A DNA stretch of 64,000 nt from an uncultured Kiritimatiellota bacterium (lineage in GTDB: Bacteria; Verrucomicrobiota; Kiritimatiellia; RFP12; UBA1067): positions 4,503 through 68,502 of the forward strand of contig CAKURH010000003.1 in assembly GCA_934675625.1 (NCBI GenBank), written 5' to 3'. The notes under the pieces were generated by a model that saw nothing but the letters and a program-made list of their open reading frames with translations, searched no databases and was not told the origin of the DNA. Shown piece by piece: positions 1 to 61,916 of this stretch (the first letter of the stretch is position 1; every line of letters starts with the position of its first letter). The translations under genes were made by a program, and so were the position numbers.

Positions 1-6097
<6,097 letters not shown>

Positions 6098-13854: not shown

Positions 13855-13858
13855 CGCC

Positions 13859-15348: not shown

Positions 15349-15358
15349 AATGGTTCGT

Positions 15359-20289: not shown

Positions 20290-20745
20290 TCATTTAGACC
20301 CTGCGTCTTGAGAGGCAAGTGGAAGCAGCTGCAATCCGTAGAGACATCTACCTTTTGTCATGCGCACCGCCATGGCTGTTGGTTCGGGCACGGAAACCAA
20401 GCACGCGGAATTCGTGGTGAAAGATGCTCCCATCGAGCGGAAATCTTTTTTGTACGCCAAGCGGAAACTCACAGCCTCTTGCGTGTTGCGCATCGGTATG
20501 AATGACAGCGAAAGATGCCGGTCACAAACCATGAATTCTGAATCACAAGGCACAGAAACAGCCTCTCCATACCGACTGATCTGAGGATCATGGCCGCCAA
20601 TCGCGTAAAGGTAGCGTCCTCCTGACTTCTTGAATGTGAACACGACATTTGTGCCTGTGGACTCAATGGAATCAAAGAATGACTTTAACGTGGCTTCCGT
20701 GATTTCCGGTTGCTGTACGGCTACGCTTCCACCCTGCGCAAGCAT
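20290..20745 (-). CDS. Hypothetical protein (151 aa), third gene of the low-GC island
   Basis: Track ORF 20290..20994 trimmed to MLAQGGSVAVQQ (ATG 20745, GGAAGGGGA upstream). It overlaps the upstream stop by 25 nt. I recognise no motif. Confidence 0.5.
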   Translation of the reverse strand: MLAQGGSVAVQQPEITEATLKSFFDSIESTGTNVVFTFKKSGGRYLYAIGGHDPQISRYGEAVSVPCDSEFMVCDRHLSLSFIPMRNTQEAVSFRLAYKKDFRSMGASFTTNSACLVSVPEPTAMAVRMTKGRCLYGLQLLPLASQDAGSK

Positions 20746-31035: not shown

Positions 31036-31066
31036 CCGCCCCTCCCAGCTTCCAGGCCTCATACCA

Positions 31067-41078: not shown

Positions 41079-41104
41079 GTTGATGTCGTGTCGTATGGTC
41101 GTGT

Positions 41105-41113
41105 AGTATAGCC
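41105..41113 (-). promoter_or_regulatory. Possible -10 element GGCTATACT upstream of the fucosidase gene
   Basis: The minus strand reads GGCTATACT 26 nt upstream of ATG 41078. The match is weaker than the other boxes. Confidence 0.35.
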
Positions 41114-41154
41114 TAAACCCAAGGCCCAAATCAAGTGCCGAACCGGGGCGCGCG

Positions 41155-45691: not shown

Positions 45692-45748
45692 TTTTGCAGC
45701 AGGTTCCTCTGGACGTTCATTCTTAGGCTTCCCTAAAAAAGAGCGCAT

Positions 45749-45828: not shown

Positions 45829-47859
45829 TTAAAACCAGATCGAGAAGAGGTCGCCGCCCTCGCTGCACGGCACGTCCGTCCCGCTCGCGAAGTCGCAGAC
45901 CTTCGCCCGAATCGTCCGCGCACCCGGCTTCGTCAGCTCCAGATTCCAACGGCCCCACACGAGGCCGTCCGACGGGCGCGGCGTCAGCGTCGCGCGGTAG
46001 CCCTTGCCGTTCACGGTGAACGCTTCGCCAATCTCCTCGCGCGTGGCGCCGGCGAGCCGCGACTTCGCCAGAACCAGCGGCCCCCACATCACCACGGCGG
46101 CCGGTGTCGTCCGATAGCCGTCCGTAAGATCGCGGTTCACGAGGGGGCTTCCGTGGTCGGGATAGCGGCGGAAGGCCCAGTTCTTCCGGTCTTGCCCGTT
46201 CAGCTCCGGCACCGTCGCCAGCCGGTCGACGACGCGCGCGTTCATGTCGAACGAAAGCGCGTAGACCTGCGCCGCGCGGACGTCCTCCGCGCCGATTGCC
46301 GCCACCTGCTCCACATTCATCTGCGGACACCACGCCGGCTTTCGGAACGCGACCTTCGCGGACGGATCCGACACCCGAACCGTCACGACGCCCTCGACCG
46401 GGTAGTTGCCCGCAATCGTGAACGTGACGTCCTCGAACGTGACCGTCGCGTCCTGATAGAGGTTCACGTGGAAGACGCCCGTCCGGTCACGCGTGACCGT
46501 CACTTCCGCAATGTCCATGAACGTGCGCGGCAGGTTGTTCACGCAGCACTGGTTGTAGGCGTAGCCGCACTGGCGCTGCTCCGTGTGACGACCGTGGCCG
46601 CGCAGGAAGAACGGGCCGAAGGCGCCGTCGCGCCAGATGCCGGCGAGGAAGCCGTTCAGGTAGGCCGCCTCGACCGAATCAAGGTGCTTCTCGTCGCCCG
46701 TCACAAGAAAGAGGTCGACGTTCAGGCGAATCCAGTGGATGACGTCGCAGACCTCGTTCAGGGCGTTGCAATACTGCGGCGCACCGATGAGCTTGTCGCC
46801 GTAGCCCACGGCGCCGAGCGGATTGGCGTCCGTCTGCGCGAGGTTGTCGCGCACGCGGCGCGCCGTCTCAAGGCAGCGCGTCTCGCCCGTCACACGATAG
46901 TATTCGAGAAGCCCGTCCACGCAGCTCAGGAACTCGTAGGTCTTCGCCCAGCGCTCGGGCTTCGGATACCACGTGTGGAGCGGCTGATCCTTGGACGCAT
47001 TGCGGAAGAAGTTCGGGATCCGCCCGTCGTCGCGATCCCAGTCGGACAGAATCTCGGCGGCGTAGTCGAGGTATTTCCGGTTCCCGGTCTCCTCGTAGAG
47101 CAGGACGAGCGGCTTCAGAATTGACATCGAGGGAAGACCGCCCAGCGCCCCGGTGTCGCACAGGCGCAGCCCCAGACGGCGGAGCATGTCGATGAGCTGG
47201 TTCGCCTGACGCTCGACCGAGGCGAGAATCGCCCGGTCGCCCGTCGCCTTGTAGGCCCTGAGCAGGCCCCACAGGCAGTATTTGCGATTCCAGACGTTCC
47301 AAACGGTCTGCCAGCCGTAGACCTTTCGCGTCGCTTCGGGGTCCCTGATCGAGACGAGTTCCTTGTCCTTGTAAGAGCCGAGGTAGCCGTCGGGATCCTC
47401 CAGCGCGATCAGCCGATGACATTCCGCCGCAACAAACGCCTTGACGGACGGATCGTCCAGGTAGTCCGCGACGCGCGCGGCGCCCAGCATGAGCTTGCCC
47501 CAAAACTCGCCGCGCCAGACGCCGCCGTGCCCCAGCACGTCGTCGTCGCGTTCCTCGAACGCGCGCCGGGCCTCGCCGAAGACGTTCTTCTGCGCAAACG
47601 CTGAGGTGACGCGCGCGTGGATGAGGGCGTCGAGCTTCTGACCCGGATAGCCCAAAAGTCTGACGTCCCGAAGCGGTGGCGTGCGCATCGCGTCCGGCAC
47701 CTCGCACAAGAGACGACCGTCGGCCGGCCCCGCAAGCCCGGCCTGAGCCAACCCGATCAGGGACAGGACGGCGAAGACCTTGCCCAACCCGACCACTCGA
47801 ACCCGACCACGGGGGTCAGACACTTTTTCAGACGTATGTTTTTTCGTATGTTTTTTCAT
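45829..47859 (-). CDS. GH127/GH146-like (DUF1680, beta-L-arabinofuranosidase-type) Cys-glycosidase
   Basis: Trimmed to MKKHTKKHTSEK (ATG 47859, ATGA overlap with the upstream stop). E-x-C (NEVCD) and C-C-x-x-N (NQCCVNN) match the GH127 Zn/Cys catalytic-site pattern. Confidence 0.8.
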   Translation of the reverse strand: MKKHTKKHTSEKVSDPRGRVRVVGLGKVFAVLSLIGLAQAGLAGPADGRLLCEVPDAMRTPPLRDVRLLGYPGQKLDALIHARVTSAFAQKNVFGEARRAFEERDDDVLGHGGVWRGEFWGKLMLGAARVADYLDDPSVKAFVAAECHRLIALEDPDGYLGSYKDKELVSIRDPEATRKVYGWQTVWNVWNRKYCLWGLLRAYKATGDRAILASVERQANQLIDMLRRLGLRLCDTGALGGLPSMSILKPLVLLYEETGNRKYLDYAAEILSDWDRDDGRIPNFFRNASKDQPLHTWYPKPERWAKTYEFLSCVDGLLEYYRVTGETRCLETARRVRDNLAQTDANPLGAVGYGDKLIGAPQYCNALNEVCDVIHWIRLNVDLFLVTGDEKHLDSVEAAYLNGFLAGIWRDGAFGPFFLRGHGRHTEQRQCGYAYNQCCVNNLPRTFMDIAEVTVTRDRTGVFHVNLYQDATVTFEDVTFTIAGNYPVEGVVTVRVSDPSAKVAFRKPAWCPQMNVEQVAAIGAEDVRAAQVYALSFDMNARVVDRLATVPELNGQDRKNWAFRRYPDHGSPLVNRDLTDGYRTTPAAVVMWGPLVLAKSRLAGATREEIGEAFTVNGKGYRATLTPRPSDGLVWGRWNLELTKPGARTIRAKVCDFASGTDVPCSEGGDLFSIWF

Positions 47860-48941
47860 CGTTTTAATGGTGGACGGGCGAGGAAGAGCGCGAGCGGCGC
47901 TTCGGCCCTGATTCGGAATGCCCCGCAGGCGGCGGGGACGAAAAACTGGTCTCCGGGGCCGATCGGCGCCACACCGGCGGCCGTCTCCAGCGCGCCGCGC
48001 CCCGACAGCACGAAGAGCCCGCAGAACGTCCCGTCCGCCGCCGGGAACGGCATCGCACCCGTGACGTCCAGCCGCTCCAGCGCGAAGCACGGCGTCGTGC
48101 GCGGCCCGACGAGCTCCGTCCGGCAAAATCCGTCGCCCGCTTCCATGACGCGCGGCGCCACCCGCTGTCGCGCGCGCGTCTCGGCCTCGTTCCGTCCGTC
48201 GTAGTGGAAGCACGTGAACATGCTGTCGAACCCGACGCCATAGTGGCACGCCGCATCGGAAATGCGGAATCCCTGCGGCGTCACCTTCTCCGTGCGGAAC
48301 GTGTAGTCGGTCGGCTCCTGAATCTCGACGAGAAGGCAACCCGCGCCGATGGCGTGCGGCGTGCCGCCCTCGATGAGGAACGTGTCGCCCGGCGCGACCT
48401 CGATGCGGTTGAGCATCGCAAGCATGGCCGGGATGTCCTGCCGGTCGAAGACGTTGCGCCACGCCGCCGGCGTCACGCCCGGCCTGAAGCCCAGGTAGAC
48501 GCACGGTCGCGCGCCGCCGATTTCCCGTCCGCCGACGATGTGCCAACATTCGGTCTTGCCGAACGGCGAGCCGAAGAGCCGTTGCGCCGCCGCGCGGTCG
48601 GGGTGGACCTGCACGCCGAGGCGCTCGGCCGCGTCGATGAGCTTGACGAGCACGGCGGGGGTCTGTCCCCACGTCGCGACGTGCGCCGCGCCGAGCAGTT
48701 CGACCGGATGCGCAGCCAGCGCGGCCTTCAGCGTGAGGTCTGTCCCCGCGACGCGGCAAAGTCCCTCGACGATCTCCTCGCGCCCCGGGTTGACGGCGCG
48801 GACGGCGGAGCAGATCCACTCCTCCGGGAAGTGCGTGTCGGCGGCTGGCGTGACGCCGTGCAGCTCGTCGAGGAACCTGCCGCCGAGATACGTCCGCCAC
48901 GCACGCGCGGACGTGAGCCGGATGGGCGCGTCAAACCTCAT
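47856..48941 (-). CDS. Class I phosphomannose-isomerase-like cupin
   Basis: Trimmed to MRFDAPIRLTSARAW (ATG 48941, ATGA overlap). Metal-ligand pattern QVHPD ... KTECWH ... GTPHAIGAG. Confidence 0.8.
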   Translation of the reverse strand: MRFDAPIRLTSARAWRTYLGGRFLDELHGVTPAADTHFPEEWICSAVRAVNPGREEIVEGLCRVAGTDLTLKAALAAHPVELLGAAHVATWGQTPAVLVKLIDAAERLGVQVHPDRAAAQRLFGSPFGKTECWHIVGGREIGGARPCVYLGFRPGVTPAAWRNVFDRQDIPAMLAMLNRIEVAPGDTFLIEGGTPHAIGAGCLLVEIQEPTDYTFRTEKVTPQGFRISDAACHYGVGFDSMFTCFHYDGRNEAETRARQRVAPRVMEAGDGFCRTELVGPRTTPCFALERLDVTGAMPFPAADGTFCGLFVLSGRGALETAAGVAPIGPGDQFFVPAACGAFRIRAEAPLALFLARPPLKR

Positions 48942-51169
48942 GCCGCCGTCGCCTCCGGGTTGACGCTCCGCACGCGGTCGACCACCAGCTTGCGGAACTT
49001 CGGCGAGAGCATCGCGAAGAACGCCGTGAACCCCGTCACGCGCACGACGAGGTCCGGATATTTCGCGGGATCCCTGTCCGCGTCGAGGATCTTCTGCGCG
49101 TCGACGATGTTGACGTTGAGGAGCGTGTTGCCGGTCGCGAGGATGGCGCGAACCATCGCGCACATCTTGTCGAGGCCCTCCGCGTCGTTCGCGACCATCG
49201 GGTCGACCTCCAGCTGCACCGGCGCCGTGTTGCCGTAGCCGGGCTGGATCGCCGCGATGGAATTGCACATCGCCGAGACCGCGCCGTCGTGCCGAAAGCC
49301 GCCGTTCGGGTTCGCGCCGTGGTTGATCGGCTCGCCCGCCTTGCGTCCGTTCGGCGTCGCCTTCAGCCGCGCGCCGAGCAGGATCGTGTTCGACCACGAG
49401 AAGAAGCCCGGAATGAAGTTGACGTGACGATAATCGTCCGCATGCTGCCGCACGAGGTCGCGCACAAGCGCCGTCCACAGCTTCGAGACGCGGACGGCCC
49501 AGGCGTCGCCGCGCGTCTCGCCCCCGCCGTAGCGTTCGGAGTGGCTGAGAAGCTGCCGGACGCGCTCGCCCTCGACGCCCGCGAAGTCCGCGTCGAGCCA
49601 CCGCTTCAGTTCCGCATACGAGAGGCGCTTCTCGCGGTCGCAGCGCTGTTCGAGCGCGGCGAAGCTGTCCGCGACGACCGCGAGCCCCGCGCCGTCCACG
49701 CAGATGTTGTAGTAGCTCGCGCCGCCGTCCGTGATGTTGACGCCCTTCTCGACGAGGCCGTGCTGCATCAGGTTGAGGATCAGCTCGGGCTGGCTTTCCG
49801 TCTGGTAGTTGAGATGGTGGATGATGCCCCGCCCGGTCGCGTCGACGGCGACCTTGAGGTGACGTCCGTAGATCTCCCAGAGCGCCTCCGCCGACTTCGC
49901 GCCGTCGGATGCCATCAACTCGTCCCACGCGACCTCGAACACTTTCGCGAGGTTGACCTTCACGGTGTCGTTCATCGTGTACTCGCGTCCGGGGATGCAC
50001 ATCCAGTGACATCCGGCGGCGACGCGGCGACGCGCGAGCTCCTTCGGGTAGCCGCAGCGCATGAAGCCCTCCATGAGCGCTTTGTCCGAGGAGTAGCGCG
50101 GCCAGCCCTGCCGGTTGCGGAAGAGACATTCGACCGACTTGCGGAAGAAGACGGGGTCGAGCCGGTCATGCACGCGGATCGTCAGGTTCGTCGCGAGATT
50201 GAGCCTGTCCGCCGCATCCAGCGCGAGGTAGCTGAGGTGGCACGTGCGGTCGTTGTCGTTCTCGTCCGGCCCGGCGAGCTGCCAGTAGCGGCTGTCCTGC
50301 AGGAAGAGGCACGCGAGGTAGAAGACGGCCTCGTCGTCCGTCAGGCGTCCGGCGGCGACGTCGCGTTCGTAGTAGGGATTGAACAGATCCTCCAGCTGTC
50401 CGCCCGCACTGCCCCGGTTGTAGGTGCGCGAGAGCATCGAGAACCAGCAGCTCCACTGAATCGCCTCGCGGAACGTCTGCGGCGGCTCGGTCGCGAGCCG
50501 CAGGTCAATCTCGCCCATCGTGCGCAGGTTCGCGGCGAGCTGCGCGTTGCGCTCCGTCCGCGCCAGCGCAAGGATCTCCTCGCCCGCGCGGCGGATGAAC
50601 GCGCTGACATGCTCGACGACGGTAATCTCCGCGTCGTAGAATGCGTGGTGCGTCGCGTCGTGCCGCGCGCGACAGTCCTTCAGCTCCTTCAGCACGCCGC
50701 CCCAGCCCTTCGCGAGCCCGATCTGCAGGTCGGGCGTGAAGTGGTGGCAGTTGTCGATGCCGGAGATGACCTGGTAGCGGTCGAAGACCGCCTGAAGGTC
50801 GGGGTAGGCGTAGGCGGGGTTCCACTTGCACATCGGCGGGCGCAGCCGCTCCAGGAAGAGGAAGCCCTTCGCCGCGAAAGCGTCGAGCGCGTCCACGTAG
50901 ATCGGGTGCTGGTCGAGGAGCGCGCAGTAGTTCTCGCACCACGCCTCGTAGCCGTAGATGGAGCCGTTCGGGTGGTTCGGCTTCAGCTTGTAGCGGAAGA
51001 CGTCCTGCTCGATGAGGCCGTAGTCGTCCTCGTCGGCGCCGCCGGCCTTCGCCTTCTCGGCGGTCTGCGCGACCTTGCGCGCCCGCAGGAGCGCAATGCG
51101 CTCGTCGTAGGTGAACGTGCGGTCGGCCGGAAACTCGTTGACGAACTGGATCTTGCTCATGGCCGTCAC
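48938..51169 (-). CDS. Glycyl radical enzyme (PFL2/dehydratase-like fold), divergent, 743 aa
   Basis: C-terminal glycyl-radical motif VVRVTGFTAFFAM (Gly713). The Cys loop AAGCHWMCIPG (Cys387) lies 326 residues upstream, which is the expected spacing. The N-terminus is PFL2-like. Confidence 0.88.
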   Translation of the reverse strand: MTAMSKIQFVNEFPADRTFTYDERIALLRARKVAQTAEKAKAGGADEDDYGLIEQDVFRYKLKPNHPNGSIYGYEAWCENYCALLDQHPIYVDALDAFAAKGFLFLERLRPPMCKWNPAYAYPDLQAVFDRYQVISGIDNCHHFTPDLQIGLAKGWGGVLKELKDCRARHDATHHAFYDAEITVVEHVSAFIRRAGEEILALARTERNAQLAANLRTMGEIDLRLATEPPQTFREAIQWSCWFSMLSRTYNRGSAGGQLEDLFNPYYERDVAAGRLTDDEAVFYLACLFLQDSRYWQLAGPDENDNDRTCHLSYLALDAADRLNLATNLTIRVHDRLDPVFFRKSVECLFRNRQGWPRYSSDKALMEGFMRCGYPKELARRRVAAGCHWMCIPGREYTMNDTVKVNLAKVFEVAWDELMASDGAKSAEALWEIYGRHLKVAVDATGRGIIHHLNYQTESQPELILNLMQHGLVEKGVNITDGGASYYNICVDGAGLAVVADSFAALEQRCDREKRLSYAELKRWLDADFAGVEGERVRQLLSHSERYGGGETRGDAWAVRVSKLWTALVRDLVRQHADDYRHVNFIPGFFSWSNTILLGARLKATPNGRKAGEPINHGANPNGGFRHDGAVSAMCNSIAAIQPGYGNTAPVQLEVDPMVANDAEGLDKMCAMVRAILATGNTLLNVNIVDAQKILDADRDPAKYPDLVVRVTGFTAFFAMLSPKFRKLVVDRVRSVNPEATAA

Positions 51170-51981
51170 CCCACCTTGACCGTCAGGCCCTTGACGTCCG
51201 CGAGTGCCGCGCGGATCTCGGCGAGCCTCGCCTCCGGGAACGGCTTCGCGTCCGCAAAGGCGTCCGCGACGCCCAGCGCCGCGCGCTTCGCGCCGCCGAG
51301 CGGATTGAAGTTCAGAACCTCATAGCGGACGATGTTTTCCATCTTCGAGATGTACTCGGCGATCGCGTGCAGGTTCTCGATGTCGTCCGTCACGCCCGGC
51401 ACGAGAGGCGTGCGCACGACCATCGGGATGCCGAGGCGGGACGTGCGCCCGATCGAGTTGAAGACCGTCGGGTTGTCGAGCCCCGTCTGCTCCTGATGCG
51501 GAATCGTCAGGTTCAGCTTCAGGTCGCACATGATGAAGTCCATCTTGCGGAGCATCGGCTCGATGACCTGCCAGGGCCGCGACATGTTCGTCTCGATCGC
51601 GACGGAGATTCCCTCGGCGTGGCAGGCGTCCGCGAGCGCGCACACGAATTCGGGGTGCAGCGATGGCTCCCCGCCCGAGACCGTCACGCCGCCGCCCGAC
51701 TCGGCGTAGTAGGCCCTGTCCTGCACGACCTCGCGCATCACCTCGGCGACGTCCATCTCGCGCGACGAGCGGACGCGCGCGCCGGCCGTGCAGCCCTCGG
51801 CACAGTGTCCGCAGCCGAGGCACTTTTCCCGGTAGAAGAGCTCGACCGGCTTCAGCGGAATCGTCTCCGGGTTGTGGCACCAGGGGCAGTGCATGTTGCA
51901 GCCCTGCAGGAAGACGGTCGTGCGGATGCCCGGCCCGTCCTGAAGCGAGAACCGCTGGATGTCCGTGACGTAGGCCTTCAT
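51166..51981 (-). CDS. Glycyl-radical-enzyme activating enzyme (radical SAM)
   Basis: Trimmed to MKAYVTDIQRFSLQDGPGIRTTVFLQGCNMHCPWCHN (CX3CX2C), with an auxiliary CLGCGHCAEGC motif. ATGA overlaps on both sides. Confidence 0.9.
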   Translation of the reverse strand: MKAYVTDIQRFSLQDGPGIRTTVFLQGCNMHCPWCHNPETIPLKPVELFYREKCLGCGHCAEGCTAGARVRSSREMDVAEVMREVVQDRAYYAESGGGVTVSGGEPSLHPEFVCALADACHAEGISVAIETNMSRPWQVIEPMLRKMDFIMCDLKLNLTIPHQEQTGLDNPTVFNSIGRTSRLGIPMVVRTPLVPGVTDDIENLHAIAEYISKMENIVRYEVLNFNPLGGAKRAALGVADAFADAKPFPEARLAEIRAALADVKGLTVKVG

Positions 51982-52760
51982 CGGCGCACCCCCTTCGCGT
52001 CGAAGGCGGCGTGCTGGCCCGTCGGGATGTGGGAGGCGTCCAGCCGCCGAAGCGCAAGCTCGTTGTCCGGGTAGAAGTCGATCCAGAGGTAGTGGCAGTG
52101 CTGGCCCGCGCGGATGTCGACGCCGTGGATCGACCCCAGCGGGATGTAGAGGAGCTCGTTGCCCTTCATCGGCGCCGCCTCGTAGTCGATCAGGACGTCC
52201 ATCTCGTTCTCCTCGAAGCTGAAGAAGAACTGGTCGAGCATCGGATGGTCGTGGCTCTTCACGGCGTCGATGCCGTAGGTCTCGACCGAGCCGAGCGCGA
52301 AGCGCGGAATGCGCCGCTGGTCGACGCAGCTGCGGGAGATCGTCTTCGCGCTCTTGTTGCGGTCGCGATACTGCTTCGAGTTGCGATAGACCTGAATGAG
52401 CGGAAACTGCGTCTTGTAGTCGGCCGCGAGCCGGTCGTCCTCCCCTGCGCGCCGAAACCAGCGGATCTCCAGGATCTGCACGTCGGAAAGCGCCTCGATG
52501 CGCACGGCCCGCTCCGGCGCGGGAACGAAGACGACGCGTTCGTGAAAGACGTATTCGTTGCCGTCCGTCGCGAAGCGCACGTCGCCCTTCAGGACGGTCA
52601 GCACATGGTGTCCGTCCATCGGGGCGAGTTCGAGCGCCGCGCCCGCGCGAATCGTGTGATGCCAGGGCGTCGCGCCCGGGATGCAACCGTCCAAGGCCTT
52701 CCGCGACTGGCTCTCCGTCGCCGAGAAGTCGAGGGCAACCTTCTGGATGTCGTATTTCAT
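51978..52760 (-). CDS. Bicupin protein (two cupin barrels), function unknown
   Basis: Trimmed to MKYDIQKVALDF (ATG 52760, ATGA overlap). The C-terminal barrel carries SHDHP...E...HGV metal-site-like residues. Confidence 0.7.
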   Translation of the reverse strand: MKYDIQKVALDFSATESQSRKALDGCIPGATPWHHTIRAGAALELAPMDGHHVLTVLKGDVRFATDGNEYVFHERVVFVPAPERAVRIEALSDVQILEIRWFRRAGEDDRLAADYKTQFPLIQVYRNSKQYRDRNKSAKTISRSCVDQRRIPRFALGSVETYGIDAVKSHDHPMLDQFFFSFEENEMDVLIDYEAAPMKGNELLYIPLGSIHGVDIRAGQHCHYLWIDFYPDNELALRRLDASHIPTGQHAAFDAKGVRR

Positions 52761-54487
52761 TTTCTCTTTTCGTTGTTCAGTTTCTTCAGGATGGGCCGCA
52801 GGGCGAGGCCCGACAGGGCCGCCACGGCCGTCAGCGCGCTCGCCGGGGCCGTCCGACCGTAAATCCACAGGCCGACGGCGAACATGAGCGCATAGACGCA
52901 GACGCACGCCACCGTCATCGCGAACAGGCCCCAGGCGATGTCATGCCGGTCGCCGCCGACCTTCGCGCGGAACGCCGCCCGCTTCGCCGCCTCGGTCGGC
53001 GGCGTCAGGAGCGTGACGGCGACCCACGCCGCCGTCGTGACCGCCATGACGACGAGGAGCCGCTGCCACGCGGCGAGCGCCGGCCCGCCGAGGTGCGGAT
53101 AGACGAGCTGCACGAAGACGGCCACGGCGAACGAGACGGCCATCGCCGTAATCTCGCTCCACGCGTTGATGCGCATCCAGAACCAGCGCAGGAGGTAGAT
53201 GAGGCCCGTGCCCGCGCCGATCTGGAGAATGAGGTTGAAGACCGCGCCCGCCGAAACGAGGTAGGGCGCGAGGACGCTGGAGAGGATCATGAGGACGACC
53301 GCCGAGACGCGCCCGACGTGGATGAGCTCGCGCTCGGACGCCGCCGGGCGGACGAACCGCTTCCAGAAGTCGTTCGCGAGGTAGTTCGAGCCCATCGACA
53401 GGTGCGCCGCGACCGTCGAGAACAGCGCGCCCATCATCGCCGCCGCGACGACGCCCAGCCAGCCGTTCGGCACGAACGTCAGCATGGCCGGATAGGCGAG
53501 GTCGCCCTTCACGAGCGACGGGTCGACGTGCGGGAACGCCCGCTGGAGCGAGGCGAGGTCGGGGAAGACGATGAGCGAGGCGAACGCCGTCAGGTACCAC
53601 GGCCAGGGGCGGATCGCGTAGTTCACGACCTGGTAGAGCATCGAGCCCGCGATGCAGTGGCCCTCGCTCTTCGCCGAGAGCATGCGCTGGACGATGTATC
53701 CGCCGCCGCCCGGCTCGCTGCCCGGATACCAGACGTTCCACCACTGGATCGCGACCGGGATCACGAACACGGCGACGAACGTGTCCGTGTCGTCGAGGGA
53801 CGGGAAGAACGAGAGGTGCGCCTGCACGGACGGGTTCGCCATCATCTGCGCGAAGCCGCCGACCTCCGGCAGGGCCAGCGCATAGTGCAGCCCGACGAAC
53901 GCGCCGACCAGGATGACAAGGAAGAGAACGAAGTCCGTGTAGATCGCGCCGCGAAACCCGCCGAGCGCCGAATAGGCGATCGAGGCGACCGACGTGACGA
54001 CCAGCACCGTCGTCTGGCTGACGCCGAAGAGCGTCTGCCCGATCTTGATCGCCGCGAGCATGCAGAGCGCCGTCGTGATCACGTTGAAGACGAGGCCGAG
54101 GTAGACGGCCCGGAACGCGCGCAGGAACGCCGCCGGCCTGCCGGAGTAGCGCAGCTCGTAGAATTCGACGTCGCTCTGCGCGCCCGACCGCACCCAGAGC
54201 TTCGCGTAGACGAAGACCGTCAGCATGCCCGTGAGGAGGAACGCCCACCACTTCCAGTTCTCGCCGAGCGACGAGTTGCGGATGAACTCGGTGAACATGT
54301 TCGCCGAGTTCGAGGAGGTCGACGCCGCGCACATCGAGACGCCGATGAGCCACCAGGGCATCGACCGCCCCGAGAGGAAGAAGTCCTTCGCGTCGCGGCC
54401 CGCCTTGCGCGAACACGCGAAGGCGATACCGAAGAGGACGGCGAAGAAGCCGAGGATGACGAGACCGTCGACGAGATTCAGGCGCAT
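52757..54487 (-). CDS. Sodium:solute symporter family (SSS/SGLT-like) transporter
   Basis: About 13 hydrophobic segments, with an N-terminus DFFLSGRSMPWW typical of the SSS family. Confidence 0.88.
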   Translation of the reverse strand: MRLNLVDGLVILGFFAVLFGIAFACSRKAGRDAKDFFLSGRSMPWWLIGVSMCAASTSSNSANMFTEFIRNSSLGENWKWWAFLLTGMLTVFVYAKLWVRSGAQSDVEFYELRYSGRPAAFLRAFRAVYLGLVFNVITTALCMLAAIKIGQTLFGVSQTTVLVVTSVASIAYSALGGFRGAIYTDFVLFLVILVGAFVGLHYALALPEVGGFAQMMANPSVQAHLSFFPSLDDTDTFVAVFVIPVAIQWWNVWYPGSEPGGGGYIVQRMLSAKSEGHCIAGSMLYQVVNYAIRPWPWYLTAFASLIVFPDLASLQRAFPHVDPSLVKGDLAYPAMLTFVPNGWLGVVAAAMMGALFSTVAAHLSMGSNYLANDFWKRFVRPAASERELIHVGRVSAVVLMILSSVLAPYLVSAGAVFNLILQIGAGTGLIYLLRWFWMRINAWSEITAMAVSFAVAVFVQLVYPHLGGPALAAWQRLLVVMAVTTAAWVAVTLLTPPTEAAKRAAFRAKVGGDRHDIAWGLFAMTVACVCVYALMFAVGLWIYGRTAPASALTAVAALSGLALRPILKKLNNEKRK

Positions 54488-56358: not shown

Positions 56359-58197
56359 TCAGTTCTCGAACAGTTCATGGCTGACCTCCTTGATGATGCG
56401 TCCGCGATAGGCGAACGGCTTTTCCGAATAGTTGACGACAAGTTCCTCGCCGTTCTCGTAACGCGTCGCGTAGACCTGCGGCGCGAGCTCGGCATGCTCG
56501 CGGATGAATTCCAGCTGAAGATGCCGCAGGGGCTTCCACGCCCGGTAGACGCGCGCGACGTCCGCGATCTGGCGGCGGTAGTCGGTGTAGTAGAACATCG
56601 GCCGCCCGCCGAACTCGAACAGCGTGAGGAGCGACTTCTCCGGCGTCTCGAGGAACTCGAAGACCTTGCGGCTCGCCCCCACGGCGTCCGACGTGCCGTT
56701 CGGCTCGCGCGGCACGCCCGCGTCAAGCGTCGCGTAGAACGGCGTGGACATGATGATGCCGTTGTAGACGATGGACCACGTGGGCAGGTAGCCGTCCACG
56801 AGCGACGTCTTCGGCACGCTCCAGCCGGGATACGGCGCCTGGTAGAGCACGTTGTCGAGCTCCGCCGCGAAGTGGTCGCAGCCGCACTCGGACGAATAGC
56901 CGCCGAACGCCGCGCGCGCCTTCCGCGCAATCCGGCGCAGCCAGCCGCGTTCCCCTTCGGACGAGTTCGGGTGGCGCGGGTCGTGGCACCGCTCCGGCAG
57001 GCGCGCGCTCATCACGTCAACATGGACGAGCCCGTCGAGGCCGAGATCCTTCATGTCCGCAAGATCCCTGTCAAAATACCTGTTGCAGATGACCTCGTAG
57101 CAGCTGTGGTAGACGGGTCCGCCGGGGAGCGTCGTGTAGCGGCGCACCTTCCCGTCCGGCCCTTTCGCGACGTCGGCTTCGCACCACCGCTTCGCGTTGC
57201 GGTAGAAGTTGTGCTGGTTCAGGTGAATCGACATGCGGTAGCCGAGCGACTTGCCGAACGCGATCGTCTCGCGCATCCCCGCGTCGCCGCCGAAGCGTTC
57301 GTCCGCCGGGAAGAGGTCGGGGAACGGGCCGTCGTGTCCACCCGGCTGAAAGCCGACGAGGCACATCTCCGCCTTGTCGATGCCCGCGTCACGGCAGTCC
57401 TGCATGACCTTCCGGAAGTCGGCGAACGTGTAGTCGACGACGACGGGCGGCATGTTCGTCTCCCAGTCCGCCCGCGTCGACGTGCGGCGGTCGCAGCGAC
57501 CGAACTTGCAGCGGAGGAAGATTGATTCGGACGCGTACGCGAGCGCGGGATTTCCTTTTATGCGTTCCCGCAGCGGACGGCATCCGCCCTCGGTGAGCTG
57601 GTGGGCGCGGTAGCGGCGCGCCATGCCCGAATAGTTTGCGTCCGCGCCCGTGAGCGGATAGAAGTCGACCACGATGTCCGCGTAGGGGTCGAACTCGATG
57701 CGCGGCAGGTCGTAGCGCGCGAAGACGGAGTAGACGCCGTTTGTGACGTGTACGTACTGCCGGTGTTCGAGCGGCATGCCCTTGACAATCGCAACGAAGC
57801 AGACTTCCGGCGTCTTGATGCCGAAGATCGGCATCCGCCACGTCCGCGTGAACGTCTCCTGCGGCTTCTTCTTGCCCGGTTCCGGCACGGCTGCGTCGCG
57901 GTTGAACGCGCCCCAGCGGCAGTCGCCGAGCGTCCAGTAGCCGTCGCATTTCGGCACGACCGCCGCGTCGGAAACGACGTCAAGCCATTTCATGTCGCGC
58001 GTCATGTCGATTGTGCGGAACTGCGCGCGATAGGCGCCGTCCGGCTGACGCGCGGCGGTGGCCCTGCGCGTCTCGACGCGCCCGTCGGCGTAGGTGATGC
58101 GGTACGTGACCCGCGCGAGCGGACTCTCCGCCCGCGCCGCCATCGCGCACGCACAGAAAACACCCGCGAGAAACAGTCCTTTGATCGTCTTCTTCAT
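56359..58197 (-). CDS. Secreted paralog B (type 2) of the same family
   Basis: Signal peptide MKKTIKGLFLAGVFCACAMAARA. Motifs MCLVGFQPGGHDGPFPDLFPADERFGG, HLNQHNFYR, CHDPRHPNS and FGGYSSECG. Closest to paralog D. Confidence 0.8.
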   Translation of the reverse strand: MKKTIKGLFLAGVFCACAMAARAESPLARVTYRITYADGRVETRRATAARQPDGAYRAQFRTIDMTRDMKWLDVVSDAAVVPKCDGYWTLGDCRWGAFNRDAAVPEPGKKKPQETFTRTWRMPIFGIKTPEVCFVAIVKGMPLEHRQYVHVTNGVYSVFARYDLPRIEFDPYADIVVDFYPLTGADANYSGMARRYRAHQLTEGGCRPLRERIKGNPALAYASESIFLRCKFGRCDRRTSTRADWETNMPPVVVDYTFADFRKVMQDCRDAGIDKAEMCLVGFQPGGHDGPFPDLFPADERFGGDAGMRETIAFGKSLGYRMSIHLNQHNFYRNAKRWCEADVAKGPDGKVRRYTTLPGGPVYHSCYEVICNRYFDRDLADMKDLGLDGLVHVDVMSARLPERCHDPRHPNSSEGERGWLRRIARKARAAFGGYSSECGCDHFAAELDNVLYQAPYPGWSVPKTSLVDGYLPTWSIVYNGIIMSTPFYATLDAGVPREPNGTSDAVGASRKVFEFLETPEKSLLTLFEFGGRPMFYYTDYRRQIADVARVYRAWKPLRHLQLEFIREHAELAPQVYATRYENGEELVVNYSEKPFAYRGRIIKEVSHELFEN

Positions 58198-60080
58198 TCT
58201 CTCCGTGCCTCCGTGACGCCGTGTGACTTTTCGGCCTGACTGTCTGCATAGAATTCGTAGCCGAGCGGCTTCACCGTGCGCCCCCGGTAGGCAACAGGCC
58301 TGTCCGAGTAGTTCACCGCGATTTCATCGCCGTTCGCCCACGTCGTCACAAAGGCGTCCGCCGCGATTTCGCGATGGTCGTCGATGAGCTCAAGCTGCAA
58401 GTGCTTCAGCGGCTGCCAGAGGTCATACATCCGCTTCATCGGCTCCAGCGTCTCGTATCGGTTGAAGTAGAACGTGGGACGTCCGCCCCATTCCAGCACC
58501 TTGAGAATCCGCGCCGAGGCGTCGGCGCCGCCCAGCCAGTCGCCCGGCCCCATTTTCGCAAGCGGGAGGCTGCCGTTCCCGTGCGGATAGGTCGGGTCGC
58601 ACGTCGAGAACGTCGGCTGGCTCATGATGATGCCGCCATAGGCGATCGGGAAGAGCGGCAGGATGCCGTCCGACATCCAGCGGCCCTCCTTCGGTTCCTC
58701 GTCCCGATACTGGTTGACGGGATACGGGCAGACAAAGAGCACGTTGTCGAGCGCGGGCGCGAAATGGTCGAAGCTCGACTCCGAGCTGTAGCCGCCAAAG
58801 GCCGCCCGCGCCTTGAGCGCCGTCTTCATCTGCCAGTCGGCCATCTGCTGCCGGTTCGCCGGATGGCGCGGGTCATGGCACGGCGTCGGGTAGCGCGCGC
58901 TCGTCACGTCCACGTGGTGCACGCCGTTGAGGCCCATGTCGCGCAACTGGCGGAAGTCGGCGTCGAGCCAGCGGTTGTTGACGACCTGAAAGCACGTGTG
59001 GTAGGCCAGCCCGCCCATGATGACCTGGTATTCGCGGCAGGTGCCGTCGACGTTCTTGCAGACGTCCTGCCGCTTCCAGAACTGGCCGCTCCCGCGATAG
59101 ATGTTGTGGTTGTTCACGTGCACGCTCATGCGGTAGCCAAGCGACTTGCCGAGCGCAATCGCCTCGCGCATCTTCGCCTCGCCGCCAAGCGGCTCGTAAA
59201 CCGGCCAGAGCTTCGGGAACGGCCCGTCGAAGCCGAGGTAGTTCCAGCCGACGATGCACATGTCCAGGTCGTCCATGCCCATCGCCTTGGCCTGCCGCAG
59301 GAGATCCATGTACGAATCGAACGTGCGGTTCACGACAATCGGCGGCATCGAGTAGTTCGGCATCTGCCGCGCATGTCCCTGGCAGTTCGCCAGTTTCGTG
59401 CGCACGTACATCGACTTCGCCGACCACGCGAGCGCCGGGTTGCCGACGATGCGCGCCTTCAGCGGCTTGACCCAGCCGCGCGCGAGGTTCCAGTCGCGAT
59501 ACTTCCGGGCCATGCCGGCGTAGCTCGCGTCCCTCCCCTCCAGCGGATAGACGTCAACGACGATGTCCTCGTAGGGATCGAACTCGATGCGGTCGATGTT
59601 GAAGCGCGGGAATATCCAGTACTTGCCCCGTTCGCCCTTTTCGGCGACGACCTTGAGCGAATATTCGAGGCGAAGGCCCTTCACGATGGCCACAAACGCA
59701 TAGGCGTCGCGCTTGACGCCGAAGATCGGCAGATGGCTCTCGCGGATCTCCAGTTCGCCCGCGTCCCGGTCGAAGCGCCCCCAGCGGTAGTCGCCGCTGA
59801 CCCAATAGCCCGGCCCCTTCGAGATGTACGCCGCCACGTCGGGGATGACGTCGAGCGTGCGCGCCTCGCGCGGGATGTCGGCCGTCGGCACGCGGTAGCG
59901 GTAGGCGCCGTCAGGCTCGCGCGTCGCCTGGATCCGGCGTTGCTGACACGGCTTTCCGTCGCCCGGCGTGATGCGCAGGACGCCCTGCTCGAATCGCGGA
60001 TTCGCCCAGAGGGCGGCCGCCGCGCCCGACAGCGCAACCGTCAGGATCCATGTGCGGCTCATTGTCTTTTTGTTTTTCAT
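58194..60080 (-). CDS. Secreted paralog C (type 1) of the same family
   Basis: Signal peptide MKNKKTMSRTWILTVALSGAAAALWA. Near-identical blocks to paralog A. A 16-aa C-terminal extension is read through the duplicated leader. Confidence 0.8.
   Translation of the reverse strand: MKNKKTMSRTWILTVALSGAAAALWANPRFEQGVLRITPGDGKPCQQRRIQATREPDGAYRYRVPTADIPREARTLDVIPDVAAYISKGPGYWVSGDYRWGRFDRDAGELEIRESHLPIFGVKRDAYAFVAIVKGLRLEYSLKVVAEKGERGKYWIFPRFNIDRIEFDPYEDIVVDVYPLEGRDASYAGMARKYRDWNLARGWVKPLKARIVGNPALAWSAKSMYVRTKLANCQGHARQMPNYSMPPIVVNRTFDSYMDLLRQAKAMGMDDLDMCIVGWNYLGFDGPFPKLWPVYEPLGGEAKMREAIALGKSLGYRMSVHVNNHNIYRGSGQFWKRQDVCKNVDGTCREYQVIMGGLAYHTCFQVVNNRWLDADFRQLRDMGLNGVHHVDVTSARYPTPCHDPRHPANRQQMADWQMKTALKARAAFGGYSSESSFDHFAPALDNVLFVCPYPVNQYRDEEPKEGRWMSDGILPLFPIAYGGIIMSQPTFSTCDPTYPHGNGSLPLAKMGPGDWLGGADASARILKVLEWGGRPTFYFNRYETLEPMKRMYDLWQPLKHLQLELIDDHREIAADAFVTTWANGDEIAVNYSDRPVAYRGRTVKPLGYEFYADSQAEKSHGVTEARRE
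58195..58227. repeat. 33-nt repeat (start codon plus 30-nt leader of type-2 genes), copy 1
   Basis: CATTCTCTCCGTGCCTCCGTGACGCCGTGTGAC is identical at 61914..61946. Confidence 0.9.
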
Positions 60081-60110: not shown

Positions 60111-61916
60111 TCAGTTCGCGGACGCATACAGCTCATACGCGAGCGGCTTCACCGCGCGCCCCCGGTAGGCGAAGTCCGAGGCCGTGTAGTTGACGACGAC
60201 CTCCTCGCCGTTCTCGTAGCGCGTCGCGAACACGTCCGGCGCGAGTTCGACATGCTCGCGGATGAACGCGAACTGCAGGTGCTTCAGCGGCTGCCAGAGG
60301 TCGTACATCCGCTTCATCGGCGCGAGGTCCCGGTAGTCCGCATAGTAGAACATCGGACGCCCGTTGAGCTCGAAGACCTTGAGCGTGCGCCGCGCCGGCG
60401 TCCCGAGATAGCCCGTGACCTCCGTGTGGGGGCCGACCGCGTCCGTCCGTCCGCTGCCTTCGCGCGGATAGGGCGCGTCAATCGTCGCGTAGAACGGATT
60501 CGACAGGATGATGCCGGAATACGCGACGTGCCAGACGGGGAAACAGCCTTCGACCAGTTCGGTCTTCGGACTGTGCCACCCCGGATAGCTGCTGACATAG
60601 AGCACGTTGTCCAGAATCGGCGCCACGTGGTCGATGCCGCATTCCGAGCTGAAGCCGCCGAAGCGGGCACGCGCCTTCTCGCCGATGCGCTTCTGCCACT
60701 CGGCCATGCGCGCACGGCTGTTCGGATGGCGCGGGTCGTGGCAGGGGATCGGCGCGGTGGCGCTCGTCACGTCGACGTGGAAGAGCCCGTTGATGCCGAA
60801 CGACGCCATGTCGTCCATGTCCTTGTCGCAATACCTGTTGCAGATGACCTCGAAGCAGCTGCGGTAGACCTGTCCGCCGGGATAGACGGTATACTTGATC
60901 GGCTGGCCGTACCGGTCCTTCGCGACGTCCGCCAGGTTCCAGCGCTTCGCGCTCCGGTAGAAGTTGTTCTGGTTGATGTGCATGTCCATGTGATAGCCGA
61001 GCGACCGTCCGTAGCGGATGGCCTCGACCATCTTCGCCTGCCCGCCGAAGCGTTCGTCCGCCGGGAAGAGGTCGGGGAACGGGCCATCGTGCCCGCCCGG
61101 CTGGAAGCCGACGAGGCACATCTCGGCCTGGTCGATGCCCATCTCCTTCGCGCGGCGCATGATGTCCTTGAAGTCGTCGAACGTGTGGTCGACCACGACG
61201 GGCGGCATCGCCTTCAGCCAGTCCGCCGGCCCCGACTTCGTGCGGTCGCAGCGGCCGAACTTGCAGCGGACGAAGATCGACTCGGCCGCATACGCGAGAT
61301 TGGGATTCCCCTTGACCCGTTCACGCAGCGGCTTCACCTCGCCACGGCCGAGCTGATAGGCGCGGTAGAGCCGCCCCATCGCCGAGTAGTTCGCGTCCGC
61401 GCCCGCAAGCGGATAGTAGTCGATGACGAAATCCTCGTAGGGATTGAACCCGACGGCCGTCAGGCGCAGCTGCACAAAGTGCTCGTAGACGCCCTCCCGC
61501 ACGTCGATGCCCTCGGTCGTCTCGTAGCGCATGCCCTTGACGATGCCGCACCAGGCCGTCTGCGGGCCCGTCTTGCCGCCAAAGAGCGTCGTGCGCAGAT
61601 CCATCCGAATCGGCTGGCCGTCCCGGCGCGTGTAGGCGCCCCAGCGCCCGTCATTCAGCATCCACCAGCCCGGTTCGCCCGCCCGGCAACGGCCCGCGAG
61701 GTTCAGGACGCGGATCGAGCGGATGTCGGGCGTCATCCGAATCGTCGGGAAGGCGAAGCGCCAGGCGCCATCCGGCTGTCGCGCCAGACGAACAACATTC
61801 GTCTCAACGGTGCCGTTCAGGCGCTCGACCGCCACTTCCGCCTGATCGAGCGGCCCCGCCGCCTCGGCGGCAAGCGCCGCGCAAAAAGCGACCGCAAAAA
61901 ACATCCCTTTCATCAT
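60111..61916 (-). CDS. Secreted paralog D (type 2) of the same family
   Basis: Signal peptide MMKGMFFAVAFCAALAAEAAG. Motifs as in paralog B. Confidence 0.8.
   Translation of the reverse strand: MMKGMFFAVAFCAALAAEAAGPLDQAEVAVERLNGTVETNVVRLARQPDGAWRFAFPTIRMTPDIRSIRVLNLAGRCRAGEPGWWMLNDGRWGAYTRRDGQPIRMDLRTTLFGGKTGPQTAWCGIVKGMRYETTEGIDVREGVYEHFVQLRLTAVGFNPYEDFVIDYYPLAGADANYSAMGRLYRAYQLGRGEVKPLRERVKGNPNLAYAAESIFVRCKFGRCDRTKSGPADWLKAMPPVVVDHTFDDFKDIMRRAKEMGIDQAEMCLVGFQPGGHDGPFPDLFPADERFGGQAKMVEAIRYGRSLGYHMDMHINQNNFYRSAKRWNLADVAKDRYGQPIKYTVYPGGQVYRSCFEVICNRYCDKDMDDMASFGINGLFHVDVTSATAPIPCHDPRHPNSRARMAEWQKRIGEKARARFGGFSSECGIDHVAPILDNVLYVSSYPGWHSPKTELVEGCFPVWHVAYSGIILSNPFYATIDAPYPREGSGRTDAVGPHTEVTGYLGTPARRTLKVFELNGRPMFYYADYRDLAPMKRMYDLWQPLKHLQFAFIREHVELAPDVFATRYENGEEVVVNYTASDFAYRGRAVKPLAYELYASAN

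Follow-up and report, generated by a model that had tools for sequence, protein, structure and literature searches.

The window analysed here is a 64,000-nucleotide stretch of contig CAKURH010000003.1 from an uncultured Kiritimatiellota bacterium. Its G+C content is about 66% and nearly all of its genes lie on the minus strand, including a long co-directional string that encodes a glycyl radical enzyme (GRE), its radical-SAM activating enzyme (activase), two cupin proteins, a Na+/solute symporter and several exported proteins (Table 1). A preliminary description, made from the sequence alone, had proposed six consecutive minus-strand genes in this region, running from the symporter through a bicupin, the activase, the GRE and a cupin resembling class-I phosphomannose isomerase (PMI) to a GH127-like glycosidase. 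The positions and identities of these genes are borne out by Pfam and NCBIfam matches and by AlphaFold2 models searched with Foldseek. It had also placed four secreted putative glycanases upstream of them. Four proteins with signal peptides are indeed encoded there, and we identify them as paralogues of the DUF5696 family, the fourth of which starts at 56354 and not with the long TTG open reading frame (ORF). The organism is a human-gut member of the Kiritimatiellae, with relatives in rumen and deer gut. The identical locus (bicupin 100% identical; loci L110-L112) is found on at least 23 contigs, one or more from a Hadza hunter-gatherer gut metagenome among them, and its sequence is indexed in 47 collection blocks.

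Table 1 Features of the GRE locus and of the co-directional genes around it, with positions in the window.
Feature	Position	Strand	Evidence and remarks
Beta-helix-like gene, 3' part	61953..64000	-	ORF 61953..63932 is the 3' part of a gene of 1262 aa on identical contigs, extending beyond the window end; first visible gene of the string
DUF5696 paralogue a, exported GH129-like putative alpha-glycosidase	60111..61916	-	PF18952 99 bits; weak GH101 match; signal peptide
DUF5696 paralogue b, exported GH129-like putative glycosidase	58194..60080	-	PF18952 109 bits; signal peptide
DUF5696 paralogue c	56359..58197	-	PF18952 110 bits; signal peptide; ATGA overlap with paralogue b
DUF5696 paralogue d, 620 aa	54492..56354	-	Starts at ATG 56354; signal peptide; ends 4 nt before the symporter start
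SGLT-like Na+/solute symporter (SSF), 576 aa	52757..54487	-	PF00474 108 bits, residues 36-443
Bicupin, 260 aa, small uncharacterised family	51978..52760	-	Sub-threshold Cupin_2; bicupin by AlphaFold2 and Foldseek
Radical-SAM GRE-activating enzyme, 271 aa	51166..51981	-	TIGR02494 263 bits, cut-off 174
Glycyl radical enzyme, CxW clade, 740 aa	48938..51160	-	PF02901 273 bits and PF01228 49 bits, both above cut-off
GRE Cys loop, residues 381-395, AAG-C384-H-W386-M-C388-IPG-R-E393-YT	49976..50020	-	Translation
GRE Gly loop, residues 705-715, VVRVT-G710-FTAFF, glycyl radical site	49016..49048	-	Translation
Class-I PMI-like cupin, 361 aa	47856..48941	-	PF21621; TIGR00218 68.5 bits, cut-off 116
Exported GH127-like cysteine glycosidase, 676 aa	45829..47859	-	PF07944 97 bits, cut-off 25

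Along the string, from the beta-helix-like gene to the GH127-like gene, the gaps are 36, 30, -4, 4, 4, -4, -4, 5, -4 and -4 nt. Five ATGA stop/start overlaps had been counted among the six genes; four of them stand (52757-52760, 51978-51981, 48938-48941 and 47856-47859), and the fifth, at the activase/GRE junction (GGTGGGGTGACGGCCATG, also written AAGGTGGGGTGACGGCCATG), is a GTGA overlap that exists only if the GTG at 51169 is taken as the GRE start. The close homologues of the GRE are 739-740 aa long and gene callers on the identical metagenome contigs start the gene 5 nt past the activase stop, so that the ATG at 51160 is the most likely start, giving a protein of 740 aa behind a 5-nt spacer in place of the 743 aa given previously. 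A scan for consensus promoters and terminators over 44.5-64 kb counted no more signals than expected from shuffled sequence, and the boundaries of the operon are therefore drawn solely from the tiny intergenic gaps. Rfam and tRNA scans gave nothing relevant. The minus-strand gene at 43610-45748, separated from the GH127-like gene upstream by 80 nt and from mutS downstream by 7 nt, encodes a protein of 712 aa in which a BcrAD/BadFG-type ATPase (activator) is fused to an HGD-D domain, similar to the D-component of 2-hydroxyacyl-CoA dehydratase. The arrangement is the same on the identical contigs, and this gene is not conserved together with the GRE cassette defined below.

By every sequence criterion tested, the 740-aa protein is assigned to the GRE superfamily. 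In alignments with PflD, YbiW and PflB, C384 falls on their radical cysteine, and G710 with its RVT-G-F motif is invariant in the family. The protein reaches 244 bits with the subfamily model TIGR01774, whose cut-off is 678, and at most one fifth of the cut-off with each of the NCBIfam equivalog models for PFL, HypD, CutC, the two sulfopropanediol dehydratases, and the decarboxylases of indoleacetate and hydroxyphenylacetate (for instance, bits against cut-off, HypD 167/1100, CutC 157/1050, HpsG 175/1000 and PFL TIGR01255 67/994). The eliminase equivalog models give 90-195 bits against cut-offs of 1000-1150. The closest solved structure, from a sequence search of the Protein Data Bank (PDB), is E. 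coli PflD at 170 bits, with other GREs at about 140, and the MAFFT identities are 28% to PflD, 24% to YbiW and 22% to PflB.

The most distinctive region is the loop that carries the radical cysteine. In the HMMER alignment, the segment AAG-C-H-W-MCIPGREY of the window GRE stands opposite VVG-C-V-E-LSIPGRTY of PflD, which brings W386 to the position of the CxE glutamate. This loop, A-A-G-C384-H-W386-M-C388-I-P-G-x-E393-Y-T, is invariant in 56 of 56 genome-assembly homologues, position 392 excepted, and across these family members 315 of the 740 positions are at least 95% conserved. According to the review of Imrich et al. (2026), the CxE motif is kept by all GRE eliminases acting on C-O, C-N and C-S bonds and by all three GRE isomerases, its glutamate hydrogen-bonding or deprotonating the substrate, and two Cys-loop cysteines are found, among the non-RNR GREs, in PFL and TdcE alone (PMC13450708). 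At the adjacent Cys-Cys site of PFL, the window family has G383-C384. The GRE 1,2-eliminases (glycerol and propanediol dehydratases, HypD, CutC, IslA/IseG and HpsG/HpfG) share with the window enzyme the fold, the RVxG[FY] Gly loop, the type of activase and the presence of one radical Cys only, at the tip of its loop. They differ from it in having CxE in each case (PMC13450708), whereas the window family has C-H-W, and the bacterial microcompartment (BMC) and aldehyde dehydrogenase context is missing here. These features place the window GRE outside the eliminase/isomerase, PFL and microcompartment-associated groups, whose defining features were tested and not found in it. A match to a characterised GRE was ruled out by the NCBIfam models, the PDB sequence search with its alignments and the search of the representative library.

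The same tryptophan loop defines a larger clade. Searching 1.84 billion cluster representatives with HMMER, we observe graded full-length relatives at 32-49% identity, which align from residue ~15, and ordinary GREs, which align only from residue ~140 and stay below ~215 bits. All of the closer relatives have a G-C-x-W loop (CNW, CHW, CFW, CQW, CGW or CPW) followed by P-G-x-E-Y, with Gln for Glu in two; the more distant matches are mostly CxE, and a few have CVQ, CST or CQH loops. When 50%-identity representatives are placed in a neighbour-joining tree with PflB as the root, the CxW sequences group in a single clade, separately from the CxE set that includes PflD and YbiW. This clade departs from the CxE rule common to every known eliminase and isomerase. 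That the GRE falls in no characterised clade, a point on which the preliminary description depended, is upheld by the lack of CxE, by scores below all of the NCBIfam cut-offs and by the separate position in the tree. C388, the second cysteine of the loop, is not conserved across the wider CxW clade. The clade comprises dozens of 50%-identity clusters; for the window branch alone, gut metagenomes yield over 100 clusters, at 79-82% identity. A branch at ~80% identity that is plentiful in metagenomes of the human gut is binned as Oscillospiraceae (L003). None of the curated NCBIfam models of release 20 (June 2026) covers it, and a literature search that included bioRxiv preprints of 2024-2026 mentioning glycyl radicals found nothing on it, the subscription literature lying outside the search; a search for literature linking GREs with cupins or PMI gave nothing relevant either. 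Uncharacterised GRE clades are already known to exist; new here are the CxW loop, the invariant cupin pair and the proposed context of an unphosphorylated sugar. One member of the clade (P0250, 1052 aa) is a natural single-chain fusion of activase and GRE, which independently supports the pairing of the two proteins and may be convenient for expression. Two further sequences (P0249 and P0326), one inside the CxW clade and one outside, have a Gly loop with R-P-T-G-F or R-P-A-G-Y, in which Pro replaces the usual Val ahead of the radical glycine.

We compared the context of the GRE gene in 70 loci from GTDB species genomes, with GREs 65-84% identical to that of the window. The loci belong to Kiritimatiellae, to many Clostridia (Oscillospiraceae, Christensenellales and Lachnospiraceae) and to Sphaerochaetaceae and other Spirochaetes. 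Most are from the guts of humans and ruminants, with Hadza, Nepali and livestock gut metagenome-assembled genomes among them. In about 50 of the 70, tblastn with the window proteins finds the activase, GRE, bicupin and PMI-like cupin, the exceptions being mostly truncated contigs, and in at least 47 the bicupin adjoins the GRE. The gene order is symporter-bicupin-activase-GRE-PMI in Kiritimatiellae and activase-GRE-bicupin-PMI elsewhere. As the order of the core genes recurs across three phyla, the arrangement is not due to chance, and the 65-84% identity of the GRE over these phyla suggests that a useful cassette has spread horizontally. Conservation of the symporter is limited to Kiritimatiellae, where it stands beside the bicupin in five loci. 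In two other Kiritimatiellae loci, the symporter-bicupin-activase-GRE-PMI series is followed by ORFs of ~440 and 270-320 aa; in L049 the ORFs after the PMI-like gene encode a GFO/IDH/MocA oxidoreductase and a TIM barrel, then a regulator.

The glycosidase genes behave differently. After the PMI-like gene, the GH127 gene is absent in L073, L002 and L049, and it was found in no other locus; an 88%-identical relative has a rubrerythrin gene 3' of the PMI-like gene instead. GH127 as a component of the system is rejected on these grounds. DUF5696 genes stand beside the cassette only in the window's own species and in this closest relative. The GH127-like gene and the four DUF5696 genes are lineage-specific additions to the cassette. 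Conservation of the preliminarily described six-gene unit is found for the activase, GRE, bicupin and PMI-like genes and not for the symporter and GH127 genes, and its 'hard-wiring' into a glycan operon holds in the lineage of the window, not for the system at large.

Most other lineages have partner genes that the window does not reveal. Clustering of the flanking ORFs gives a GFO/IDH/MocA oxidoreductase in 53 of the 70 loci (80 copies), an AraC-type regulator in 38, a xylose-isomerase-like TIM barrel in 23, a PF12831 FAD oxidoreductase in 20, and MATE, TRAP and ABC transporters in 10, 7 and 6, respectively. Among the 128 neighbour proteins left unclustered, nothing recurs except GH94 (3 loci), and there is no recurrent kinase or aldolase. 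Likewise, tblastn of the 70 loci (E <= 1e-5) with the E. coli probes EutM/N/K/L/S, EutE, EutD (phosphotransacetylase, PTA), FsaB, YbiV and the IIC component of the phosphotransferase system (PTS) gave no match. Within the window, the E. coli Eut, Fsa and Frw proteins, used as tblastn probes (E <= 1), found no homologue of a BMC shell protein, acylating aldehyde dehydrogenase, PTA, Fsa aldolase or PTS, YbiV likewise gave no match there, and no significant sugar-kinase domain was found among the large ORFs put through Pfam, with ORFs of 100-200 aa and ORF 3..2513 outside that scan. The FGGY matches in the window are all sub-threshold and fall within the BcrAD/HGD-D fusion. To this extent, the lack of a kinase, an aldehyde dehydrogenase and a shell gene remarked upon at the outset is confirmed.

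In a sister branch whose GREs are 50-55% identical and have a CNW loop, activase-GRE-bicupin-PMI is found in 9 of 32 loci, and the others lie among glycoside hydrolases and sugar transporters. Two members come from isolates: the GRE of Lachnotalea sp. AF33-28 has as neighbours GH130, GH38, a weak GH63/MGH1-like match and ABC transporter genes, and near that of Paenibacillus sp. S150 lie genes for an esterase, a GFO/IDH/MocA oxidoreductase and a GH63/MGH1-like protein. One Oscillospiraceae locus (L037:1624-4124) encodes another GRE a few kb upstream of the CxW cassette; it is unrelated to the cassette enzyme (24% identity), has a CVE-type loop and is accompanied by an activase of its own.

The radical and metal motifs of the cassette proteins are preserved. 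The activase has the motif C28-x3-C32-x2-C35 and a single auxiliary ferredoxin-like motif, C54-x2-C57-x2-C60-x3-C64. At 271 aa it is short, with a deletion of ~28 residues relative to TIGR02494, and its Firmicute homologues are ~300 aa long. The bicupin has 277 detectable homologues, all named 'hypothetical', and no KduI or IolB family match in Pfam or NCBIfam, in which it finds only the sub-threshold Cupin_2. Its AlphaFold2 model (pLDDT 94.9) is matched by Foldseek to quercetinase, DR1152, BacB, AerE and an IolB-like protein (TM ~0.63-0.70), the likeness to 2QJV (TM 0.68) being at the level of the fold. In its C-terminal barrel, H170, H172, Q177 and H212 are invariant and look like a metal site. 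In the PMI-like cupin, Q111, H113, E131 and H196, which we take to be the metal ligands by the PMI motifs, are at least 97% conserved in 55 sequences, and PDB entry 1QWR is matched at 66 bits. We name this protein only 'PMI-like', and not mannose-6-phosphate isomerase, because its TIGR00218 score is below the manA cut-off. The symporter is closest in the PDB to the Na+/galactose transporter vSGLT (118 bits; SGLT1/2 are also near) and gives 45 bits with the sialic-acid transporter SiaT.

Of the partners in other lineages, the GFO/IDH/MocA oxidoreductase is closest to DgpA, a C-glycoside 3''-oxidoreductase (77 bits), then to YjhC, with weak matches to PDB 2GLX and 4KOA. The TIM barrel (AP_endonuc_2) is closest to ketose 3-epimerases, the 3-keto-glucoside 4-epimerase YcjR and TM0416. 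Both likenesses are far below the family cut-offs, and the PF12831 FAD oxidoreductase has PDB matches only through its dinucleotide-binding motif, which are uninformative. In these two partners the cassette resembles the 3-keto-glycoside enzyme sets (DgpA/DgpBC in C-glycoside cleavage, YcjS/YcjR of E. coli, IolG/IolO of Thermotoga); genes of this type are present in most of the loci other than the window and absent from the window itself. A GRE is not known from any of these pathways.

Among the exported proteins, the four DUF5696 paralogues are 44-59% identical to one another. The AlphaFold2 model of paralogue d (pLDDT 92.5) has as its best Foldseek match the GH129 enzyme NagBb (TM 0.71, E 8e-31) and as its second the 3,6-anhydro-D-galactosidase ZgGH129 (TM 0.63), with an identity to these GH129 structures of only 16-17%. 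Paralogue b gives weak PDB sequence matches to the same two enzymes (E 3e-5 or weaker). DUF5696 would thus appear to be GH129-like by its predicted fold; we found no paper on this family. The GH127-like protein has a signal-peptide-like N-terminus, matches PDB 6EX6 and 5MQO, and carries NEVCD (E-x-C) and QCC (C-C) motifs, which we presume, after HypBA1, to mark the Cys/Glu zinc site. For the beta-helix-like protein, the match to PF13229 (right-handed beta-helix) is below cut-off (E 1.4e-3), and L073 has a 61%-identical copy of its gene upstream of the DUF5696 genes. The combination of GH127-like and GH129-like enzymes is that of the 3,6-anhydro-D-galactosidases used by Zobellia on carrageenan; the identity is 16-17%, however, and red-algal galactans are not expected for a Kiritimatiellae organism of human and ruminant guts. 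The downstream pathway of Zobellia, DauA-D, is non-radical, and none of its enzymes is present here. In other proteins, DUF5696 is fused to GH130 and GH43, to GH76 (alpha-1,6-mannanase), to DUF1080 ('3-keto-disaccharide hydrolase') and to Exo_endo_phos (P0408, P0428, P0446 and P0509). These fusions, taken with the GH130, GH38 and GH63-like genes that neighbour the sister-clade GREs, hint at a mannoside-related theme.

The genes and their motifs, the loss of the CxE glutamate, the separation of the clade and the synteny of the four-gene core are direct observations, and from them we infer a substrate class, a direction of the pathway and a chemistry. We slightly favour the view that the activase, GRE, bicupin and PMI-like cupin, here with the SGLT-like symporter, form a portable cytoplasmic cassette whose substrate would be an unusual sugar derivative of pyranose type, unphosphorylated and probably neutral, and whose product would be an ordinary hexose open to housekeeping enzymes, the CxW enzyme probably catalyzing a sugar reaction so far undescribed. 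The sugar-type substrate suggested in the preliminary description fits the vSGLT-like symporter, the intact PMI-type metal site and the sugar oxidoreductase-like and epimerase-like partners; its nature and the chemistry are conjectural. With a common hexose as the product, the cassette would need no kinase or aldolase of its own, which agrees with the lack of a recurrent kinase or aldolase, and of PTS, BMC shell and aldehyde dehydrogenase genes, in the flanks of the 70 loci.

In the proposed sequence of events, the four GH129-like enzymes, the GH127-like enzyme and the large beta-helix protein would be exported and would release the compound from a glycan, and the SGLT-like symporter, judged by homology, would import it. 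The activase, in which all of the motifs are present, would place a radical on G710, from which it would move to C384, and the resulting thiyl radical would take a hydrogen from the sugar. A classical Glu-assisted ketyl elimination is not expected, because W386 replaces the CxE glutamate. This tryptophan probably stacks on the sugar ring, where other GREs put the base, and acid-base help, if any, might come from clade-specific residues such as E393, H385 or H139/H140. The outcome could be C-O cleavage, ring-opening or a hydroxyl-shift isomerisation, and ketol isomerisations by the two metal-dependent cupins would precede or follow the radical step. Where other lineages have the DgpA-like oxidoreductase, the epimerase-like TIM barrel and the FAD enzyme, these probably supply that step with 3-keto sugars or their like.

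Several points weigh against this interpretation. The tree is an unbootstrapped neighbour-joining tree whose characterised members are E. coli PflD, YbiW and PflB only, other GREs having been compared through HMM scores and PDB searches. The glycosidase genes say little about the substrate, because they are not conserved with the cassette. Furthermore, the cassette often stands beside TRAP transporters in Firmicutes, and since the usual cargo of these transporters is carboxylates or sulfonates, this argues for an acidic, not a neutral, substrate in these lineages. An acidic sugar or sulfosugar (4-O-methyl-glucuronate or another uronate, aceric acid, sulfoquinovose) is an unlikely alternative: as an eliminase or decarboxylase, the GRE would remove methanol, sulfite or CO2, the C6 anion would occupy the phosphate site of the PMI-like cupin, and the bicupin would have a KduI-like role. 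TRAP genes (DctPQM) lie beside the cassette in at least 7 loci of the core family and in about 5 of the sister clade, and in L071 they are adjoined by UxuA-like and short-chain dehydrogenase (SDR) genes. In addition, a PMI-type enzyme without a clustered kinase would suit a sugar with a built-in C6 anion, and the bicupin fold resembles that of 2QJV, of the IolB/KduI family. The GH16, GH29, rhamnosidase-like domain, esterases and KDPG aldolase also present in the window suit plant cell-wall glycans. However, the window symporter is far nearer to the neutral-sugar transporter vSGLT than to SiaT, the bicupin has no KduI/IolB Pfam match, the 70 loci contain no recurrent sulfite-handling gene, sulfoquinovosidase or KduD, and known eliminases need the CxE glutamate that is absent in the window GRE. 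The sulfosugar variant is downgraded further by the absence of Arg at the sites expected for the Arg/Gln/Arg sulfonate site of IslA/HpsG, a weak test in which those positions are assumed and carried over by alignment offsets. The same glutamate bears on an ordinary propanediol or glycerol dehydratase serving the fermentation of fucose or rhamnose. GRE propanediol dehydratases are common in gut bacteria using these sugars, and a GH29 alpha-L-fucosidase gene (39645-41129) lies on the same strand ~5 kb downstream. With mutS and an unrelated gene between GH29 and the operon, a score far below the PFL2/glycerol-dehydratase family cut-off, and no shell, aldehyde dehydrogenase or PTA gene in the window or the 70 loci, this option has next to no probability, and we consider it ruled out because the catalytic Glu and the pathway genes are missing.

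The closest solved relatives by sequence, PflD and YbiW, themselves act on a carbohydrate: they are the ring-opening GRE isomerases of 'anhydroglycolysis', acting on 1,5-anhydromannitol-6-phosphate and 1,5-anhydroglucitol-6-phosphate, and they share with the window system a PFL-like GRE, a dedicated activase and the absence of a microcompartment. A similar ring-opening of free 1,5-anhydroglucitol or 1,5-anhydromannitol, not 6-phosphorylated, to 1-deoxyfructose seems improbable, even if PflD leads the PDB matches and 1,5-anhydrofructose reductase belongs to the same GFO/IDH/MocA family as the oxidoreductase that accompanies the cassette, 2GLX and 4KOA being among the weak matches of the latter. 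Both anhydrohexitols are carried by mammalian SGLT-type transporters (PMC12441222), which would agree with the type of importer found here. Against this, the Glu that deprotonates the C2-OH in PflD/YbiW is a Trp in the window family, the identity is only 24-28% with a separate clade, and the first ~140 residues align only with the CxW clade. Moreover, the E. coli PflD/YbiW loci have frw PTS genes and fsaA/fsaB, while neither the window nor the 70 loci have a PTS, an Fsa-type aldolase, a phosphatase partner or a kinase for 1-deoxyfructose; the partners are instead two cupins, for which an anhydrohexitol pathway has no role, and in other lineages also the oxidoreductase and the TIM barrel. The window enzyme may still work somewhat as PflD and YbiW do, by radical chemistry on a carbohydrate ring, but this likeness does not make it one of their group. 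The loop could also be read as that of a PFL-like C-C lyase, in which the thiyl radical would attack a carbonyl group in a keto-sugar, a diketo-cyclitol or a 2-keto-3-deoxy acid by addition and so cleave the carbon chain or the ring, a reading to which we give little credence. It would account for the second invariant cysteine, C388, two cysteines being otherwise confined to PFL and TdcE (PMC13450708), and the missing general base fits addition over elimination. The accessory genes also resemble a Thermotoga-type inositol set, with an IolG-like GFO/IDH/MocA enzyme, an IolO/TM0416-like TIM barrel and an IolB-like bicupin fold. Yet the cysteines are at i and i+4 and not adjacent as in PFL/TdcE, C388 is not conserved in the wider clade, the score with TIGR01255 is minimal and the identity to PflB is 22%. 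There is no PflA-type short activase, no FocA or other formate channel and no CoA-handling enzyme (PTA, aldehyde dehydrogenase) nearby, and the window operon has no oxidoreductase to make the keto substrate. The inositol literature searched, including a paper on myo-inositol in Dysosmobacter, makes no mention of a GRE, a formate lyase or a cupin, and we keep inositol-like chemistry as a minor rival only. A substrate that is not a sugar at all, for instance a plant cyclitol carboxylate (quinate, shikimate) or another small metabolite, with the glycan context incidental, is more doubtful. The glycosidase genes are lineage-specific, TRAP and MATE transporters stand beside many loci, the bicupin fold matches BacB and AerE, isomerases of prephenate-derived carbocycles, and 3-dehydroshikimate dehydratases are xylose-isomerase-like TIM barrels. 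These points are countered by the intact PMI-type active site, by the SGLT-like symporter, by accessory enzymes closest to glycoside 3-oxidoreductases and ketose 3-epimerases, and by the sister clade, which lies among GH130, GH38 and GH63-like genes and sugar ABC transporters.

A more novel and rather speculative reading, which we regard as improbable, is that the CxW clade represents a new class of GRE reactions without an active-site base. The enzyme would act as an isomerase of the radical hydroxyl-shift or 'radical hydratase' kind that turns an anhydro-ketose into an ordinary aldose such as mannose, after abstraction of the hydrogen beside the ring oxygen, and the PMI-like cupin would then make fructose. 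Candidate substrates are 1,5-anhydro-D-fructose or 3-keto-anhydro sugars from oxidative cleavage of glycosides or C-glycosides. This would explain the loss of CxE, the Trp in the loop, the SGLT-like importer, the DgpA-like and 1,5-anhydrofructose reductase-family oxidoreductases, and the absence of kinase and aldolase. If true, it would be an oxygen-free 'hydrolysis' of a sugar ether, the anaerobic counterpart of a P450 step in Sinorhizobium.

GREs are the main route of strict anaerobes to chemically hard reactions, and newly assigned GRE clades have revealed gut pathways from choline to trimethylamine, for hydroxyproline, from sulfonates to H2S and for anhydroglucitol. The substrate of the CxW clade, once known, would add a reaction type to the superfamily and give a function to two orphan families, the 260-aa bicupin and DUF5696, and would probably explain the anaerobic use of a sugar derivative now considered unfermentable. 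Experiments are feasible, since the isolates Lachnotalea sp. AF33-28 and Paenibacillus sp. S150 have enzymes of the sister clade.

Elsewhere in the window, a low-GC island (20000-25000, 52-58% against ~66%) contains two ORFs without Pfam match (20290-21743) and another (21740-25021) whose product, of 1093 aa, has bacterial TSP3 repeats; inside the latter ORF, ARAGORN places a 93-nt 'tRNA-Arg' (24064-24156) that is probably spurious. Genes for GH16, a KDPG/KHG aldolase and a pyruvate:ferredoxin oxidoreductase gamma domain stand in a row on the minus strand at 13072-15388; this aldolase, 33 kb from the GRE, is the sole one among the ORFs scanned. A 1309-aa protein (25107-29036, minus strand) combines BD-FAE and Peptidase_S9-like esterase-type domains with a rhamnosidase-like six-hairpin domain, and next to its gene is that of a DUF6259 protein (28999-31062, minus strand), a family that also matches the DUF5696 paralogues weakly. 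Finally, three very large minus-strand ORFs without Pfam match (2471-6634, 6124-8787 and 8810-11979), one of which (1387 aa) has a sub-threshold GH127 match, probably encode further uncharacterised glycan-active proteins.

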